NCBI GenBank assembly: GCA_951406725.2
Contig: OX597818.1
Coordinates: 50,220,001-50,284,000 of the forward strand
DNA from: Octopus vulgaris
Taxonomy: Eukaryota
Direction of reading: 5' to 3'
Length of the DNA stretch: 64,000 nucleotides
Shown: piece after piece, positions 50,320 through 64,000 of the stretch
Layout of the letters: each line of letters opens with the position of its first letter
Position numbering within the stretch: position 1 is the first letter of the stretch
Notes under the pieces: model-generated
What the model saw: only the letters and a program-made list of their open reading frames with translations
Told to the model about the DNA's origin: nothing
Databases searched by the model: none
Program-made: the position numbers and the translations under genes

Positions 50320-50528
50320 AGACTTTGTGTGATATGGGTATGTTGGAACAACTGATTGGACATCTGCGAGAAGACCATTCCCTTTTCCATGAACATCTTA
50401 TGGCATGTTTGTTAGCTATTCTTACTGATCATCCACGTTCTCTTGAAGACTGTAAACAACCACAGCTGGAATTTAATGAAATCTTACAACAAAAACTTAA
50501 ATCTCTACATGGAAGAGATGAATTTAGA
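50320..50528 (+). CDS. HSPBP1: HSPBP1 exon 5 (ETLCDMGMLEQLIGHLREDHSLFHEHLMACLL...GRDEFR)
   Basis: TTTACAG acceptor, AGA|GTGAGT donor, phase 1 to 0; TLC.MGM..QL and HS.FHEH motifs. Confidence 0.95.
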
Positions 50529-52139
50529 GTGAGTACATCCTGTCTGCATTCAATCTGTTGGCCATTTTTCCATGTTTACATTAGGTGTTGTAAATCTTTT
50601 GATATGAGTTCCTTTTGTTATCCCAACTGCTCTGAGCCTATTTCCAGTACAGTTATATCATCATCGTCGTTTAACATCCGCTTTCCATGCTAGCATGGGT
50701 TGGACGATTTGACTGAGGACTGGCGAACCAGATGGCTGCACCAGGCTCTAATCTTGATTTGGCAGAGTTTCTACAGCTGGATGCCCTTCCTAATGCCAAC
50801 CACTTACTAATAAATAATAATAATTATAATAATAATAATAATATGCTTGAAATTTTTGTGAAGATATATTATTTCAATATATAATATTTGGATTTGTTTT
50901 TTTTTTTATAAGTATTGTAATCTGGGTTAGACAAATAAATATAGATTCCTGCAGAGATCTTTCTACAAAGTTCCACAAAAGAGATCCCCATCTAGAATGG
51001 TACTTGTCCTTTTGAGAATTCACCACCAATAAGGTTTTGTATTGAGAGTTCACTGAAGGCAGTTCTTATCATTAAAAGTGGTTGACTAACCATAAATGCC
51101 TTAGGTTTGAACTTCCTAAGAAGTATTATTTCATTTCATCATCATCATCATCATCGTTTAACGTCCGCTTTCCATGCTAGCATGGGTTGGACGAATGACT
51201 GAGGGCTGGCGAACCAGATGGCTGCACCAGGCTTCAATCTTGATCTGGCAGAGTTTCTACAGCTGGATGCCCTTCCTAACGCCAACCACTCCGAGAGTGC
51301 ATTGGGTGCTTTTACATGTCAGTCAGGCAGTGCTGGTAACGATCATGCTTGCATGGTGCCTTTTAAGTGCCATTGGCACGGAAGCCAGTTAGCTGCTCTG
51401 TCAATGATCACATTCGTATGGTGCTCTTTGCACTCCGCTAGCATCGGATTTGATTTTGATGTTGATTGTGTTGGTCACCTTTAAATTATGTGAAATTCTT
51501 TTCCACTTGTGAAAGGTGTAAATTCATTCTCCAGAAATATTGTTACTTCATCTAATCTCTAATTTGTTAATTCAAAATAACTGAATGAATTAGGTATGAA
51601 ACGGAATTATTTCCCAAATGACAAGATATTTAGAGTGTGTAAATTCTGTTACCACTGTGAGCTTTAGAGATGGCTTTTAGCTCTTGCTTACAGACATTGA
51701 TATTACTGATGGAGTACAAGTCTTGCTTTTATCGTTCTTCTTTGTTTGCAAGTTTCTGTGGATAGATGCCGTTCCTGTCACAATTTCATGTGTGTACGTT
51801 AACAAACTGAGCCGTGAATGTATAGGGTTCTGAGGTCCTTTTATTGAATCTCTAATGTTGGTGCATCAGTCATAGAAAGGGAGCCAAACAACATGTACAA
51901 GCATCAATACATGGACACGACAGAGCCCAATAAAAATGATTCAGACCCTGATGAACTGGCACAACACATGGCAGCATAGAAAGTATATGAGTGGTCAAAC
52001 TGTCCACCCATGCCAGCATGTACAATGGACATTAAATGATGATGATGATATATATATATATATCGTATGTATGTGTGTATAAGCACAGGTATGGCTGTGC
52101 AGTTAAGAAGCTTGCTTCCCAGCTATGTGGTCTTCGGTT

Positions 52140-53112
52140 CAGTCCCACTGCATGGCACCTTGGGCAAATGTCTTCCATTAAAGCCCTAGGTTGACCTAAA
52201 CATTGTGAGTGGAAGACGGCGAGCTGGCAGAAACGTTAGTGCGCTGGGCGAAATGCTTAGCGGTATCTCGTCTGTTGTTACGTTCTGAGTTCAAATTCCG
52301 CTGAGGTCGACTTTGCCTTTCATCCTTTCGGGGTCGATAAATAAAGAACCAGTTACGCACTTGGGTCAATGTAATCGACTTAATCCATTTGTCTGTCCTT
52401 GTTTGTCCCCTCTATGTTTAGCCTGTTGTGGGTAGTAAAGAAATATAAACCTTGTGAGTGGATTTTGTAGGCAGAAACTGAAAGAAGCCCTTCGTTTGTA
52501 TATATGTATATGTGTGGTGTTATTAACGAACCTCATTGTCATAGAAGCGAGGCTGTTTATTTCTAGTTTATTTCTACTCTTCCATGAAAAACATGACCTC
52601 CTATGGGGAAATATTATCTTGCTAGGAAACAAATGGAGGGTCAGTGACAGGAAAGGCATTTGAGTCACAAAAACAATCTGTCTCAATAAATTCTGTCTGA
52701 TTCATTTTAAATATGGAAAAGTAGGCATTAAATGATGATTGTGATGATCAGTCCCACTGCATGGCACCTTGGGCAAATGTCTTCCATTAAAGCCCTGGGT
52801 TGACCTAAACCTTGTGAGTGGATTTGGTAGGTGGACACTGAAAGAAGCCCTTCGTTTGTATATATGTATGTATGTGGGTGGTGTTATTAACGAACCTCAT
52901 TGTCATAGAAGCGAAGCTGTTTATTTCTAGTTTATTTCTACTCTTCCACGAAAAACATGACCTCCTATGGGGAAATATTATCTTGCTTGAAAACAAGTGG
53001 GGGTCAGTGACAGGAAAGGCATTTGGGTCACAAAAACAATCTGTCTCAATAAATTCTGTCTGATTCATTTTAGATATGGAAAAGTAGGCATTAAATGATG
53101 ATTGTGATGATC
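52140..53112 (+). repeat. Local ~360-bp tandem duplication of a composite SINE; the first copy carries a family B SINE (52216-52445)
   Basis: 52140-52749 and 52750-53112 align; the nested SINE is flanked by TAAAC(A/C)TTGTGAGTGGA direct repeats. Confidence 0.85.
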
Positions 53113-53211
53113 TATCTATTACAAATATTCTATCCAGTTATTATGTAATTTCTCTTTATCAGACATGGTTATTTAACAGCTCTTAATATTTGAATATCGA
53201 TTTTATTGCAG

Positions 53212-53310
53212 GAAGAGCTTCAGTACACGAAAAATATATTGCAGATGTTAGGTTCAAGTGGTAGTAACAGTAGCAGTCCTGTTGGATGTGCATCTAGTGC
53301 AGGAAGGTAA
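53212..53310 (+). CDS. HSPBP1: HSPBP1 terminal coding exon 6 (EELQYTKNILQMLGSSGSNSSSPVGCASSAGR*)
   Basis: TTGCAG acceptor, phase 0, EEL.....L motif continues exon 5; the spliced CDS is 990 nt and open throughout. Confidence 0.88.
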   Translation, partial: EELQYTKNILQMLGSSGSNSSSPVGCASSAGR

Positions 53311-53622
53311 TCTGTCTCTGCACTTCACCATACACACACACACATGTATATATATATATATATATAAATATATATATATACTACGCATGCATGTATATCT
53401 ATCTGTCGGTATGTATGTGTGAAATGGGTGTGAGTGTGTTTGGGTGTGTATATATATGTAGAGATGTGTGTGTGTGTGTGTATACACACATCCACACACA
53501 TGCATGTTTGTATGCATATATGTATCTGTATGTAACATATATGTATGAATGTATGTTATATCTATATATATATAAATACATGTGCATATATATGTAGAGC
53601 TATTTGTGTGTGTATAAATGTA

Positions 53623-53672
<50 letters not shown>

Positions 53673-55700
53673 TATGCATACAGACATGCACATATATATG
53701 TGTGTGTGTGTGTGTGTGTCTATGGATTTAAAAAAAAATATCTGATTCTCTCCTATTATTAAATCCTGACACATTTAGCCAACAAATATCCCACTGATGT
53801 CTCTGCTGGAAAAGCAAAACCAATTTGAAAGACTATGGAGAAGAAGAAAAAAAAAACCGAAACAACAAACAAAGAAAAAAATTAAAACAACTCAAAAAAA
53901 AACAAACAATTATAAAAACATAACAAAAATATATGAACTATTTATTTGAAAGGTTGTCAGCACCCCCCCTCACTTCCACATTGTGCAGTTGTTATTTTTA
54001 TTATTGTCGATAAGTTTGTTTTCTAAACACCATTTGTCATTTCTGGTGATGCTACTTTGATTGTTGCCCACACCTCTTTTCTCAATTTACTGACAATCTA
54101 CCTTAAGATTAGATGCAGTCCACCACACATACAACTTTTCAAATTCCCATTTTATATTGGACATTTTAACTAATTTGTTTTTGTATTTGATGCCTGAATG
54201 GCAGTTATTTAAATCTTACACACTATTTGACATACATGTATACTTACATGTATGAACTGGTTGTCAATTATAACATATGAAAGAAAATTTTCTGGAAAAA
54301 AAAAAACTCAAAAAAAAAACAAAACAAAAACGAACTGTTCATTGTCGAAATATTAAATTTTAAGTGTTGGACCCTGTATACTGTCAAAATATAGCAGCAT
54401 CACCTGGCATGATCTTGACTCAAGTTTATCAGAAGAGTTCCCTTATCCTTTGCCATTAGCTACTTTGAACTTTTATTCCACCTGCTGGCCAGGTGTTTTC
54501 AGTAGCTTACCTTGGGTGAAGACAGTCCGTGTACTAGTCTACTCTTTCTGTTTAACAATGAGTACACGCAAATATATATATATATACATCAAACAAGCAA
54601 GCCCATACATGCAAACACATTGTGGTTATGTTTCTGTGAGCAAACAATCTTGTTTCAGCCTTGGAATAAAATGAATATAAACAAATTAAGCCTTATGTTG
54701 AATTATCACTAATTTTACAAACTATTTAATAATTTTCCAGTCATGTTTGTCAATTTTGTATTTTTTTAATTCCAAAAGGTGTTGCCCACACAATGTTGTA
54801 GCATAATGGACAATTTTTTTTCTTCACTATGTTATTGTTCAAACATACGTTTAAATTAATGTAAGTAATGAACTTATTGCACATAGCTTTGTAAATAAAC
54901 ATCACCATTGATCTGAAACTTGGTAATTCAATAGTGTTTCTCTAATAACAAAGGACTGTTTTAGTATCTTCTAAATATACGATGGCATTAAGCAAATTGT
55001 CTTGTTTTAATTTTTTCTCTTGCTGTTTCCTACCAACCTGAACAACATCTGTGTGCTAAGTAAGACAAATATGAACTAGTATAAAATAGCAACAAATGTT
55101 TTACATTTTTTTAATGAATTATGGAAACAGTAATGTAACCAAACTATATATTTTTGTGTGGTACAAAATATCCAGTCTATAGAAATAGTTTTTTCGTGTA
55201 GTCTTTTCTCAGCTCTTGGATCTTTTAACCAAGTTACTATTGCAAGTAACTTCAGATATGTGGTTGTGTACACCTTAGCATATTGCTAATAAATGAAGCT
55301 GGCCTCATTGACTTACTGATGCCAAGGTTGTAAATGAAGTTTAGACATTCTCTAAGGAACTAATATTGAATTTAAAGAAAAGAAAAAAAAAATAGACAAG
55401 AAAAAATATTGCTTACAAAGACATTGACTTGAATTCCTTATGGTTAAATTTTTATTATATATTTGCAGTTTTTAATAATATATATAGCATTTAATTCTTG
55501 GTTTAAAGTAATATATTGTATTATACATGAATCAATTAAATATTTTACATTTCTTTAATAATTTTTATATAATTATCAATAATTACCAACAGATGTTCTT
55601 TAAATAAAAACTATTAGTAGGTCTAAAAACAATCTCATGCACTGTTTATAGTCGGATGATTACAAGAAAATAAAAAATTTAACAACTTTTGATTTGTTTC
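53311..55700 (+). other. Probable long HSPBP1 3' UTR
   Basis: SINE-free AT-rich stretch after the stop, with several AATAAA (e.g. 55603, 55669) followed by T/G-rich sequence; the end is uncertain. Confidence 0.5.
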
Positions 55701-56056
55701 AATATATGATTCATAAAGTAGTGTCTTATTACTTGCCTGTGTACTGAGAATTTCCTATCACCAATTAATGAAAATCAATAATCTTCTAATATTTTACATG
55801 CTTCTTATATTGTTACACATCAAACAGCTAATTATTTATTTTGAGTATAATATAATTCAGAAAGTGGAGTAAAAAAAAAAAAAGTGATTTTGATTATTTA
55901 TAAAGTGTTGATGTGAATAACATTAGTTAGCTTTCTGTTTTCAGAGTGTTTTCTACACTTTGGAATATTTTCTGGAATTGAAGTTTTGTCAGGTCTGTCT
56001 GCCCACTTGGATTTTTCAATAACAATGAATGATATATAGAACTCATTATCTTCTCG

Positions 56057-59000
56057 CTTATACTTCCAAGGTTTTCTCGTATATACACCTTTCTACCATC
56101 TGTCTTATACTTCTGAGGTTTTCTCGTATATACACCTTTCTACCATCTGTCTTATACTTCAGAGGTATTCTCGTATATACACCTTTCTAACATCTGTCTT
56201 ATACTTCTGAGGTTTTCTCGTATATACACCTTTCTACCATCTGTCTTATACTTCAGAGGTTTTCTCGTATATACACCTTTCTACCATCTGTCTTATACTT
56301 CAGAGGTATTCTCGTATATACACCTTTCTACCATCTGTCTTATACTTCAGAGGTTTTCTCGTATATACACCTTTCTACCATCTGTCTTATACTTCAGAGG
56401 TTTTCTCGTATATACACCTTTCTACCATCTGTCTTATACTTCAGAGGTTTTCTCGTATATACACCTTTCTACCATCTGTCTTATACTTCAGAGGTTTTCT
56501 CGTATATACACCTTTCTACCATCTGTCTTATACTTCAGAGGTTTTCTCGTATATACACCTTTCTACCATCTGTCTTATACTTCAGAGGTTTTCTCGTATA
56601 TACACCTTTCTACCATCTGTCTTATACTTCAGAGGTTTTCTCGTATATACACCTTTCTACCATCTGTCTTATACTTTCAGAGGTATTCTCGTATATACAC
56701 CTTTCTACCATCTGTCTTATACTTCAGAGGTTTTCTCGTATATACACCTTTCTACCATCCTATATCTGTTTTCTCGTATATACACCTTTCTACCATCTGT
56801 CTTATAGAGGTTTTCTCGTATATACACCTTTCTACCATCTGTCTTATACTTCAGAGGTTTTCTCGTATATACACCTTTCTACCATCTGTCTTATACTTCT
56901 GAGGTTTTCTCGTATATACACCTTTCTACCATCTGTCTTATACTTCAGAGGTTTTCTCGTATATACACCTTTCTACCATCTGTCTTATACTTCAGAGGTT
57001 TTCTCGTATATACACCTTTCTACCATCTGTCTTATACTTCTGAGGTTTTCTCGTATATACACCTTTCTACCATCTGTCTTATACTTCAGAGTTTCTCGTT
57101 TTCTCGTATATACACCTTTCTACCATCTGTCTTATACTTCAGAGGTTTTCTCGTATATACACCTTTCTACCATCTGTCTTATACTTCAGAGGTTTTCTCG
57201 TATATACACCTTTCTACCATCTGTCTTATACTTCAGAGGTTTTCCCGTATATACACCTTTCTACCATCTGTCTTATACTTCAGAGGTTTTCTCGTATATA
57301 CACCTTTCTACCATCTGTCTTATACTTCAGAGGTTTTCTCGTATATACACCTTTCTACCATCTGTCTTATACTTCAGAGGTTTTCTCGTATATACACCTT
57401 TCTACCATCTGTCTTATACTCTCAGAGGTTTTCTCGTATATACACCTTTCTACCATCTGTCTTATACTTCAGAGGTTTTCTCGTATATACACCTTTCTAC
57501 CATCTGTCTTATACTTCTGAGGTTTTCTCGTATATACACCTTTCTACCATCTGTCTTATACTTCAGAGGTTTTCTCGTATATACACCTTTCTACCATCTG
57601 TCTTATACTTCTGAGGTTTTCTCGTATATACACCTTTCTACCATCTGTCTTATACTTCAGAGGTTTTCTCGTATATACACCTTTCTACCATCTGTCTTAT
57701 ACTTCAGAGGTTTTCTCGTATATACACCTTTCTACCATCTGTCTTATACTTCAGAGGTTTTCTCGTATATACACCTTTCTACCATCTGTCTTATACTTCA
57801 GAGGTTTTCTCGTATATACACCTTTCTACCATCTGTCTTATACTTCTGAGGTTTTCTCGTATATACACCTTTCTACCATCTGTCTTATACTTCAGAGGTT
57901 TTCTCGTATATACACCTTTCTACCATCTGTCTTATACTTCTGAGGTTTTCTCGTATATACACCTTTCTACCATCTGTCTTATACTTCTGAGGTTTTCTCG
58001 TATATACACCTTTCTACCATCTGTCTTATACTTCTGAGGTTTTCTCGTATATACACCTTTCTACCATCTGTCTTATACTTCTGAGGTTTTCTCGTATATA
58101 CACCTTTCTACCATCTGTCTTATACTTCAGAGGTTTTCTCGTATATACACCTTTCTACCATCTGTCTTATACTTCAGAGGTTTTCTCGTATATACACCTT
58201 TCTACCATCTGTCTTATACTTCTGAGGTTTTCTCGTATATACACCTTTCTACCATCTGTCTTATACTTCTGAGGTTTTCTCGTATATACACCTTTCTACC
58301 ATCTGTCTTATACTTCTGAGGTTTTCTCGTATATACACCTTTCTACCATCTGTCTTATACTTCAGAGGTTTTCTCGTATATACACCTTTCTACCATCTGT
58401 CTTATACTTCAGAGGTTTTCTCGTATATACACCTTTCTACCATCTGTCTTATACTTCTGAGGTTTTCTCGTATATACACCTTTCTACCATCTGTCTTATA
58501 CTTCTGAGGTTTTCTCGTATATACACCTTTCTACCATCTCTCTTATACTTCTGAGGTTTTCTCGTATATACACCTTTCTACCATCTGTCTTATACTTCTG
58601 AGGTTTTCTCGTATATACACCTTTCTACCATCTGTCTTATACTTCTGAGGTTTTCTCGTATATACACCTTTCTACCATCTGTCTTATACTTCTGAGGTTT
58701 TCTCGTATATACACCTTTCTACCATCTTCTTATACTTCTGAGGTTTTCTCGTATATACACCTTTCTACCATCTCTCTTATACTTCTGAGGTTTTCTCGTA
58801 TATACACCTTTCTACCATCTGTCTTATACTTCTGAGGTTTTCTCGTATATACACCTTTCTACCATCTGTCTTATACTTCTGAGGTTTTCTCGTATATACA
58901 CCTTTCTACCATCTCTCTTATACTTCTGAGGTTTTCTCGTATATACACCTTTCTACCATCTCTCTTATACTTCTGAGGTTTTCTCGTATATACACCTTTC

Positions 59001-62000
59001 TACCATCTGTCTTATACTTCTGAGGTTTTCTCGTATATACACCTTTCTACCATCTGTCTTATACTTCAGAGGTTTTCTCGTATATACACCTTTCTACCAT
59101 CTGTCTTATACTTCTGAGGTTTTCTCGTATATACACCTTTCTACCATCTGTCTTATACTTCTGAGGTTTTCCGTATATACACCTTTCTACCATCTGTCTT
59201 ATACTTCTGAGGTATAACCTTTTCATCGTATATACACCTTTCTACCATCTGTCTTATACTTCTGAGGTTTTCTCGTATATACACCTTTCTACCATCTGTC
59301 TTATACTTCTGAGGTTTTCTTCTGTATATACACCTTTCTACCATCTGTCTTATACTAGGTTTCTGATATACACCTTTCTACCATCTGAGAGGTTTTCTCG
59401 TATATACACCTTTCTACCATCTGTCTTATACTTCTGAGGTTTTCTCGTATATACACCTTTCTACCATCTGTCTTATACTTCTGAGGTTTTCTCGTATATA
59501 CACCTTTCTACCATCTCTCTTATACTTCTGAGGTTTTCTCGTATATACACCTTTCTACCATCTGTCTTATACTTCAGAGGTATTCTCGTATATACACCTT
59601 TCTACCATCTGTCTTATACTTCAGAGGTTTTCTCGTATATACACCTTTCTACCATCTGTCTTATACTTCAGAGGTTTTCTCGTATATACACCTTTCTACC
59701 ATCTGTCTTATACTTCAGAGGTATTCTCGTATATACACCTTTCTACCATCTGTCTTATACTTCCGAGGTTTTCTCGTATATACACCTTTCTACCATCTGT
59801 CTTATACTTCAGAGGTATTCTCGTATATACACCTTTCTACCATCTGTCTTATACTTCAGAGGTTTTCTCGTATATACACCTTTCTACCATCTGTCTTATA
59901 CTTCAGAGGTTTTCTCGTATATACACCTTTCTACCATCTGTCTTATACTTCAGAGGTATTCTCGTATATACACCTTTCTACCATCTGTCTTATACTTCAG
60001 AGGTTTTCTCGTATATACACCTTTCTACCATCTGTCTTATACTTCAGAGGTTTTCTCGTATATACACCTTTCTACCATCTGTCCTATACTTCAGAGGTTT
60101 TCTCGTATATACACCTTTCTACCATCTGTCTTATACTTCAGAGGTTTTCCCGTATATACACCTTTCTACCATCTGTCTTATACTTCAGAGGTTTTCTCGT
60201 ATATACACCTTTCTACCATCTGTCTTATACTTCTGAGGTTTTCTCGTATATACACCTTTCTACCATCTGTCTTATACTTCAGAGGTTTTCTCGTATATAC
60301 ACCTTTCTACCATCTGTCTTATACTTCTGAGGTTTTCTCGTATATACACCTTTCTACCATCTCTCTTATACTTCTGAGGTTTTCTCGTATATACACCTTT
60401 CTACCATCTGTCTTATACTTCTGAGGTTTTCTCGTATATACACCTTTCTACCATCTGTCTTATACTTCTGAGGTTTTCTCGTATATACACCTTTCTACCA
60501 TCTGTCTTATACTTCTGAGGTTTTCTCGTCTATACACCTTTCTACCATCTCTCTTATACTTCTGAGGTTTTCTCGTATATACACCTTTCTACCATCTGTC
60601 TTATACTTCTGAGGTTTTCCCGTATATACACCTTTCTACCATCTGTCTTATACTTCAGAGGTTTTCTCGTATATACACCTTTCTACCATCTGTCTTATAC
60701 TTCTGAGGTTTTCTCGTATATACACCTTTCTACCATCTCTCTTATACTTCTGAGGTTTTCTCGTATATACACCTTTCTACCATCTGTCTTATACTTCTGA
60801 GGTTTTCTCGTATATACACCTTTCTACCATCTGTCTTATACTTCTGAGATTTTCTCGTATATACACCTTTCTACCATCTCTCTTATACTTCTGAGGTTTT
60901 CTCGTATATACACCTTTCTACCATCTATCTTATACTTCTGAGGTTTTCTCGTATATACACCTTTCTACCATCTGTCTTATACTTCAGAGGTTTTCTCGTA
61001 TATACACCTTTCTACCATCTGTCTTATACTTCTGAGGTTTTCTCGTATATACACCTTTCTACCATCTGTCTTATACTTCTGAGGTTTTCTCGTATATACA
61101 CCTTTCTACCATCTCTCTTATACTTCTGAGGTTTTCTCGTATATACACCTTTCTACCATCTGTCTTATACTTCTGGGGTTTTCTCGTATATACACCTTTC
61201 TACCATCTCTCTTATACTTCTGAGGTTTTCTCGTATATACACCTTTCTACCATCTGTCTTATACTTCTGAGGTTTTCCCGTATATACACCTTTCTACCAT
61301 CTCTCTTATACTTCTGAGGTTTTCTCGTATATACACCTTTCTACCATCTCTCTTATACTTCTGAGGTTTTCTCGTATATACACCTTTCTACCATCTGTCT
61401 TATACTTCAGAGGTTTTCTCGTATATACACCTTTCTACCATCTGTCTTATACTTCTGGGGTTTTCTCGTATATACACCTTTCTACCATCTTTCTTATACT
61501 TCAGATGTTTTCCCGTATATACACCTTTCTACCATCTGTCTTATACTTCAGAGGTTTTCTCGTATATACACCTTTCTACCATCTGTCTTATACTTCAGAG
61601 GTTTTCTCGTATATACACCTTTCTACCATCTCTCTTATACTTCAGAGGTTTTCTCGTATATACACCTTTCTACCATCTCTCTTATACTTCTGAGGTTTTC
61701 TCGTATATACACCTTTCTACCATCTCTCTTATACTTCTGGGGTTTTCTCGTATATACACCTTTCTACCATCTGTCTTATACTTCAGAGGTTTTCTCGTAT
61801 ATACACCTTTCTACCATCTGTCTTATACTTCAGAGGTTTTCTCGTATATACACCTTTCTACCATCTGTCTTATACTTCTGAGGTTTTCTCGTATATACAC
61901 CTTTCTACCATCTCTCTTATACTTCAGAGGTTTTCTCGTATATACACCTTTCTACCATCTCTCTTATACTTCTGAGGTTTTCTCGTATATACACCTTTCT

Positions 62001-62287
62001 ACCATCTGTCTTATACTTCAGAGGTTTTCTCGTATATACACCTTTCTACCATCTGTCTTATACTTCTGGGGTTTTCTCGTATATACACCTTTCTACCATC
62101 TGTCTTATACTTCAGATGTTTTCCCGTATATACACCTTTCTACCATCTGTCTTATACTTCAGAGGTTTTCTCGTATATACACCTTTCTACCATCTGTCTT
62201 ATACTTCAGAGGTTTTCCCGTATATACACCTTTCTACCACCTGTCTTATACTTCAGAGGTTTTCTCGTATATACACCTTTCTACCAT
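56057..62287. repeat. 47-bp tandem satellite, about 133 copies
   Basis: Unit CTTATACTTC(A/T)GAGGTTTTCTCGTATATACACCTTTCTACCATCT(G/C)T; period 47 (e.g. 56341 to 56388). Confidence 0.98.
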
Positions 62288-62717
62288 AAAAGGGAGTTCA
62301 CAAGTCTATCTAACATGTTTATTAATTTCCCATTTCTACCACTGCATTTGATGATTCTTGTTTCCTTGACCACATTAGACGAAGTAACTTCTTCAAAATT
62401 GCCCCAAGACCCATTTTAATCTGCAGCTAAAATTTCTTTTTATGTAATGACATGTTTTAGCGAATATGAACTAATGAGATAAACACTCTCTCTGTGTGAA
62501 ACCATATTCAAATGACATTTCAACAAGAATGCTTCCATTGACAGGCATAACATGCCTGGGCATGATTCCGTTTACAAGTTTATCATTTCTTTAAATTCTT
62601 TTCTTCCTTCTTCGTGTTTTGTCTTGTAAAAGAACAGATAATTCAGGTTATTGTTTTCCAGCAATTTCATTCATTTATAGAAATTTCCATTAGATTATTA
62701 CTTACAGTCTAACAGCC

Positions 62718-63589
62718 ATACCTCGGATGTTTCACTGTCCCTTCAAATCTATCTTCTGGGCACTTTTCAAAATACAGCCATGCTTTCATTTCTGGAAATA
62801 TTCCATCTTCCTTTGCTTCTACTGATACGACTTCCTTATTCCTCTATAGTTACGTGAGAAAATCCATCGACATGACTCTGTCTCCCAGAGCTATACCTCG
62901 GATGTTTCACTGTCCCTTCAAATCTATCTCTGGGCACTTTTCAAAATACAGCCATGCTTTCATTTCTGGAAATATTCCATCTTCCTTTGCTTCTACTGAT
63001 ACGACTTCCTTATTCCTCTATAGTTACGTGAGAAAATCCATCGACATGACTCTGTCTCCCAGAGCTATACCTCGGATGTTTCACTGTCCCTTCAAATCTA
63101 TCTTCTGGGCATTTTTCAAAATACAGCCATGCTTTCATTTCTGGAAATATTCCATCTTCCTTTGCTTCTACTGATACGACTTCCTTATTCCTCTACAGTT
63201 ACGTGAGAAAATCCATCGACATGACTCTGTCTCCCAGAGCTATACCTCGGATGTTTCACTGTCCCTTCAAATCTATCTTCTGGGCACTTTTCAAAATACA
63301 GCCATGCTTTCATTTCTGGAAATATTCCATCTTCCTTTGCTTCTACTGATACGACTTCCTTATTCCTCTATAGTTACGTGAGAAAATCCATCGACATGAC
63401 TCTGTCTCCCAGAGCTATACCTCGGATGTTTCACTGTCCCTTCAAATCTATCTTCTGGGCATTTTTCAAAATACAGCCATGCTTTCATTTCTGGAAATAT
63501 TCCATCTTCCTTTGCTTCTACTGATACGACTTCCTTATTCCTCTATAGTTACGTGAGAAAATCCATCGACATGACTCTGTCTCCCAGAG
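62718..63589. repeat. 175-bp tandem repeat, 5 near-identical copies
   Basis: CCTCGGATG recurs at 62721, 62896, 63070, 63245, 63420. Confidence 0.97.
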
Positions 63590-63796
63590 AAATTGATTTC
63601 ACTTCTCCCTCAATATATTTCATGATCCTGTAAAGTGGATTACATATAATATGTTTGCTACCTCATTAGGTATACTCATCCAATGTTAGTGTTTCACTTC
63701 AGTAGTTTCTTGATCTCTGCTGTTGATCACAAAGACTTTCAGTCTTATTGCTTCCTTGCCAAAGTAAACAGCCTGAACTTCTGCATAACTACATGA

Positions 63797-63845
<49 letters not shown>

Positions 63846-64000
63846 TTGTGCAAGGTCCACGTGACATATTGCATGGTTTCTGCATAAATACTTCATTCAG
63901 ATTCCTTCACTGTACATACTGAACTTACTCATTCACTTTTTCCTTGAACTTAGTCCCTATTTTCTCTCTAATCAGTCTGAATTCTTCCATTATATTAATT

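Follow-up and report, generated by a model that had tools for sequence, protein, structure and literature searches.

A 40-bp repeat in the 3' UTR of human SLC6A3 is a familiar single-locus minisatellite, or VNTR, lying in a transcribed non-coding region. Classical satellites are described as long heterochromatic arrays whose units number in the hundreds to thousands (Garrido-Ramos 2017, PMC5615363, section 3.2), and the satellite life cycle, as outlined in one figure legend (Ruiz-Ruano et al. 2016, PMC4935994, Fig. 5) and one review section (PMC5615363, section 3.4), starts when a short array arises de novo at a single locus. Here we describe two tandem arrays downstream of an HSPBP1-like gene in Octopus vulgaris. 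With a probability of roughly three in four, we propose that two adjacent unique, transcribed and probably non-coding pieces of DNA were tandem-duplicated in place and then likely expanded into single-locus minisatellites. The pair is thus likely a known kind of element, i.e., single-locus minisatellites or VNTRs in a transcribed, probably non-coding stretch.

Two tandem arrays downstream of an HSPBP1-like gene

The region studied, hereafter the window, is a stretch of 64,000 nucleotides (assembly GCA_951406725.2, OX597818.1, 50,220,001-50,284,000, forward strand), and all coordinates are relative to it. Its relevant features are:

53213..55385, + strand: last exon and 3' UTR of the HSPBP1-like gene, with a GT..AG spliced joint in RNA runs
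55742..56052, no strand assigned: left flank, unique, from which an RNA contig enters the first 47-bp unit
56053..62287 (6.2 kb), no strand assigned: 47-bp minisatellite of 133 units, from TRF and unit anchors
62288..62713 (426 bp), no strand assigned: spacer between the arrays, unique, with one genome match
62716..63589 (0.9 kb), no strand assigned: 175-bp tandem array of five units, from TRF and unit analysis
63590..64000, no strand assigned: right flank, unique, with a single genome match

The neighboring gene was recognized from a Fes1 domain and matches to HspBP1 in PDB in its upstream exons. Its GT..AG joint (50528-53212) was present in all three RNA runs (X2, X10, X15) and missing in a DNA run (X13), and its stop codon, read from the sequence, lies near 53308, about 2.7 kb before the array-bearing stretch begins. 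The left flank has no paralogue in the genome, and the right flank includes a (TG)/(TA) microsatellite near 63805-63845. Rfam yielded no match at the gathering score in 53300-64000, and literature listings gave no published description of this octopus locus.

The 47-bp array was called by TRF as 132.9 copies of period 47 (56057-62287, 96% matches). Unit anchors gave a count of 133, with 121 of the 132 delimited units full length and the first unit spanning 56053-56099 if four diverged bases are included. This leftmost unit is the most divergent (4 differences from the commonest unit), whereas internal units differ from the commonest unit by 0.86 on average (n = 121 full-length units). Identical neighbors make up 0.26 of pairs, against 0.20 after shuffling (95th percentile 0.25). 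The array is AT-rich (36% GC), and its head-to-tail units fall within the 10–100 bp range of minisatellites. At its junction with the left flank it displays a 1-bp (T) microhomology, and it ends in register, i.e., on a whole number of units.

The second array, called by TRF as 5.0 copies of period 175 (62714-63589, 98% matches), is composed of five units, one of them 174 bp long, which carry 0–2 differences from the last unit. It also ends on a whole number of units, with a 2-bp (AG) microhomology at its edge (62714-62715). Within the reach of genome DNA searches that pass over very common words and score only the best candidates, both units were confined to this locus: all 106 exact genome copies of a 32-mer from the 47-bp unit lay inside the window, the five places matched by the 175-bp unit were all at this locus, and the 2.8-Gb genome contained no second array of either kind. 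An 18-mer of the 47-bp unit, with one mismatch allowed, gave 150 genome matches, of which 133 were in the array and about 17 elsewhere (8 for a control pattern), and the one outside match listed had flanks unrelated to those of the array. The arrays thus occupy one genomic site between unique flanks, as single-locus minisatellites and VNTRs do. An earlier note on this DNA had called them satellites apparently born inside one dead kinase-like gene; both arrays were confirmed, but "satellite" overstates single-locus arrays of 6.2 and 0.9 kb. Their unit numbers (133 and 5) and their location 2.7 kb past the stop codon of a gene make them minisatellite-type arrays by size and position, and not classical satellites.

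Just beyond the window end, at window-equivalent 64368-64655, two 141-bp copies about 85% alike represent a third duplication, which is older than the two arrays. About 2 kb of ancestral sequence has been the site of two, and probably three, duplications. TRF also detected around eleven non-simple arrays with a period of at least 30 in the surrounding 193 kb, several of them inside dispersed repeats, and tandem arrays of such period are not rare nearby.

Presence of the arrays in RNA

The spacer was present, at 94–96% of its words, in 20 of 24 listed public runs from seven studies. We examined five of these 20, namely X1, X2, X10, X13 and X15, which were chosen for containing the spacer. The RNA status of X2, X10 and X15 rests on the spliced HSPBP1 joint, X13 is DNA, and treating X1 as RNA is a guess. 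In the three spliced runs, depth was 0–2.5 over unique intron versus 6–15 over the left flank, and contigs covered the left flank together with the 47-mer, including an X10 contig (55742-56098) that crosses the left flank into the first 47-bp unit. The whole 175-bp unit appeared as a repeat in contigs of X1, X10 and X15, and X15 covered 30 of 30 bins of 63355-65030 without any splice joint. Since contigs from RNA runs cover the arrays and their flanks without joints, we conclude that the arrays are transcribed and, where examined, unspliced. The presence of arrays, spacer and flanks in RNA-seq contigs is new here, and the description of the locus as dead overlooks that the stretch is found in RNA. 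Among predicted minus-strand splice sites, those close to 63930 and within the 175-bp unit were rejected, with no joints at either place in RNA contigs; another is predicted near 62705, at the edge of a spacer whose words are nearly all found in the runs.

No single contig spans the locus, and the contigs carry no information on strand or continuity. Cover has gaps at 55424-55741 and, in three runs, at 63579-63850, with X10 and X15 having none at 55424-55622; the gaps themselves are given no weight as evidence. We lean slightly towards the array RNA being a separate, convergent minus-strand transcript: in two studies the HSPBP1 3' contigs end at 55372-55385, the ratio of depth to that of HSPBP1 varies between runs, and a coding-like minus-strand open reading frame with AG/GT ends lies about 16 kb further on (window-equivalent 81081-81431). 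The same RNA may instead be a long 3' UTR isoform of HSPBP1, since an A-rich run marks the place where the contigs ending at 55372-55385 break off, and the gap has some cover in X2.

Depth relative to the spacer also bears on array length. In X10 the ratios, 6180/49.8 (~124) for the 47-mer and 254/49.8 (~5) for the 175-bp unit, fit the assembly. The corresponding values were ~15–25 and ~11–17 in X15, and ~5–11 for the 47-mer in the DNA run X13, with which X15 shares several flank variants that the window lacks. The depth ratios differ about tenfold among four runs, although contig depth does not count copies and is also a poor measure of expression. These differences hint at large copy-number variation between animals, i.e., VNTR behavior.

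Origin of the arrays and nature of the ancestral sequence

Whole-unit register and genome uniqueness are the expected traces of tandem duplication of resident DNA, and we therefore regard the birth of both arrays in situ as well supported. In this respect the earlier proposal is supported: both arrays end on whole units, their edges display microhomology of 1–2 bp, and the genome holds no other array. The converse, that the arrays are copies of a dispersed satellite inserted from elsewhere, is extremely improbable. The earlier note had named a dispersed 47-mer with unrelated flanks as counter-evidence; the genome search returned no other array of either unit, and by our own estimate random ends would coincide with whole units at both arrays only about once per thousand (3/47 × 3/175). 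The first duplication may have occurred by end-joining or by replication slippage at minimal microhomology, and later growth by slippage or unequal multi-unit exchange, a route we infer because it fits the divergent edge unit and the slight enrichment of identical neighbors. Copy number of both arrays would then likely vary between animals, and adding length to a long RNA may be the only role of the arrays. In X1, X10 and X13 the spacer contig ends where it meets either array. No single-copy, pre-duplication allele was seen, and the ancestral single-copy state is therefore a reconstruction.

What this ancestral DNA was is a separate question, for which both arrays were collapsed in register to 1094 nt. 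The earlier note had read this sequence as a pseudogenised kinase, likened to the intronless TSSK/CAMK type, that was amplified on two occasions, with fragments in ePK subdomain order, and its two read-through peptides do share one minus-strand frame after the in-register collapse. We searched with frameshift-aware alignment against kinase profiles built from 29, then up to 49, kinase loci of the same genome. With a TSSK-like profile and free jumps, a chain of matches does assign SYAEV to the P-loop and VSHRE to the catalytic loop, with ELPF following subdomain IX, and a CAMK profile at jump cost 6 (one of nine settings) outscores all 60 genomic windows and all 40 shuffles. The five kinase-like fragments that were tested nevertheless fall across all three frames, and order-2 simulations of the sequence's own composition, serving as the null for the in-register chain test (100 each), scored at least as high in 57, 20, 49, 38, 33, 32, 11, 3 and 62 cases for nine profiles, the four CAMK/TSSK profiles being those with 20, 49, 38 and 33. 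Subdomain order is thus no better than composition-matched chance for the proposed families, the one positive setting having come from a weaker null. A TK/TKL profile (3/100 in the chain test, 6/50 in the frameshift test) was rejected as chance, being one of nine profiles and not the proposed family.

Other searches likewise argue against a kinase. The core motifs scored (Gly loop, VAIK, HRD, DLKxxN, DFG, APE and DxWSxG) characterize protein kinases, and none of nine core motif patterns was found in any of three frames. A PF00069 genome scan gave no match at the locus among the 135 of 749 candidates that were scored, four PDB searches returned no kinase and one non-kinase match (E 0.2), and none of the Pfam matches of 21 frame translations was to a kinase (best E 0.027). 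Pairwise frameshift alignment to the 29 kinases, with a one-base register error at each junction of the collapse, reached 47 on the minus strand, 46 on the plus strand and 40 reversed. Against the profiles the sequence scored 17–21 bits, where genomic controls averaged 16–17 and peaked at 24–25.5 (n = 86); repeating the tests with the in-register collapse (14–19 bits) left the outcome unchanged. A large protein collection that includes Octopus TSSK proteins (e.g., TSSK1-like) yielded nothing at E 0.1 among 324 and 24 candidates, with each search confined to a single frame and a limited range of lengths. When pseudogenes of six held-out kinases were simulated with 20% substitution and 2% indels, 22 of 24 trials exceeded 25 bits, whereas at 30% substitution the number fell to 5 of 24; because the method misses most kinase pseudogenes at the latter decay, a kinase would remain only as a very old relic, which we consider very unlikely. 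A kinase origin is not supported: the searches returned no kinase and no credible protein match, the very outcome that the earlier note had said would tell against it. The locus therefore gives no demonstration of satellite DNA arising from a kinase gene, and illustrates that A-rich DNA read in free frames can produce kinase-like fragments by chance. Pfam did not back the visual resemblances of the right flank to a hAT transposase and to CK1, which were set aside.

The ancestral stretch might alternatively be a very old minus-strand relic of another coding sequence, such as a lineage-specific gene, a retrocopy or a transposon ORF. We judge this unlikely, if less so than a kinase. In its favor, and as the earlier note had correctly observed of an A-rich minus strand, composition is skewed: with each junction of the collapse one base out of register, plus-strand pyrimidine fractions were 0.590 over 1.0 kb (1 of 152 background windows as skewed) and 0.610 over 1.9 kb (0 of 79), equivalent to 59–61% purine on the minus strand versus 52% in kinase coding DNA. 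Inside the 175-bp unit, an open stretch of 40 codons lying between AG and GT also has the best codon score (8.3) among minus-strand candidate exons listed for 53–98 kb. This candidate exon is nonetheless unspliced in the runs examined, the whole unit being present in RNA contigs, and a protein-like character of the collapsed sequence was not confirmed: stops number 21, 25 and 20 in the three minus-strand frames, the longest open stretch is 64 codons, and, with the same out-of-register collapse, 3-periodic coding signal is absent (scores as high came from 38 of 152 genomic windows and from 19 of 60 simulations matched in composition). No Pfam family fell under E 0.01 in the 21 translations, the genome contains no paralogue, and no parent gene or intact orthologue matched in the two protein-collection searches (two frames, set length ranges), even though octopus proteins are included there. 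The only match among 1.84 billion representative proteins, searched with one frame lying one base off the intended one, was a 1522-aa five-repeat protein without a kinase domain (E 3e-5, 26% identity). The minus-strand purine excess is unusual and is left without explanation by the minisatellite model; old coding or retroelement DNA may have left it behind. A more elaborate picture would combine these elements into an RNA of at least 9.5 kb, two-thirds of it young minisatellite differing about tenfold between close octopuses, inside old minus-strand gene remains, with three growth stages (2, 5 and 133 copies) at a duplication hot spot within 2 kb of former coding DNA; we find it unlikely as a whole.

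Comparison with known systems

Under the preferred reading, duplication in place of resident, probably non-coding DNA, this locus cleanly illustrates tandem arrays that keep a legible record of where they arose. As a possible large transcribed VNTR, it may also serve as a marker in octopus or as a probe of array length versus RNA level. With the octopus TSSK1-like kinase, the collapsed sequence has in common only short fragments picked by eye, with no significant alignment and no core motif. With VNTRs of the SLC6A3 type, by contrast, the octopus arrays share a unit of 10–100 bp (in the 47-bp array), unique flanks, presence in RNA and a likely variable copy number; they differ in being AT-rich (36% GC), in having far more units (133), and in a variation that is only hinted at by contig depth. 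Relative to the satellite model as given in the figure legend and review section cited above (PMC4935994, PMC5615363), the 47-bp array grew to 6.2 kb with no dissemination, a step that the model places before amplification. In the terms of the same accounts, the octopus arrays nevertheless resemble the first stage of the satellite life cycle, in which a duplication arises de novo at a single site and is then amplified locally.

Tandem duplications in and beyond the window

Beside the 47-bp and 175-bp arrays there is a third, older tandem duplication, whose two copies are ~85% identical and lie inside the same purine-skewed, transcribed stretch. Local arrays are common in this region, since two more were detected in the neighboring stretches L004 and L068 (window-equivalent coordinates continue the window numbering past its end at 64000).

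L002:1368-1655 (window-equivalent 64368-64655), two tandem copies with a 141-bp period
L004, window-equivalent 92245-92832, array of ~200 bp x 3
L068, window-equivalent 100460-101849, array of 32 bp x 44

Within the 47-bp array, five units of irregular length (46, 55, 49, 40, and 36 bp) cluster at window 59100-59400, which may reflect real decay or else long-read consensus error. Separately, ~350 bp are apparently duplicated within the last HSPBP1 intron (window 52140-53110), the first copy being interrupted by a SINE-like repeat.

A candidate exon directed toward the arrays

L003:8081-8431 (window-equivalent 81081-81431), minus strand, 117-codon open frame with AG/GT ends

The codon score of this frame ranks second-best in 193 kb, and the frame resembles an exon of an unannotated gene directed toward the arrays. 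No homologue was found in Pfam, PDB, the protein database, or the octopus genome itself.

Divergent kinases elsewhere in the genome

The same genome also carries divergent kinases, each in one long open frame (L086, L087, and L088; L082-L085). One group lacks the HRD and APE motifs that kinases usually have. The other, with three copies within 25 kb, is VRK/CK1-like, such family labels being our own reading.
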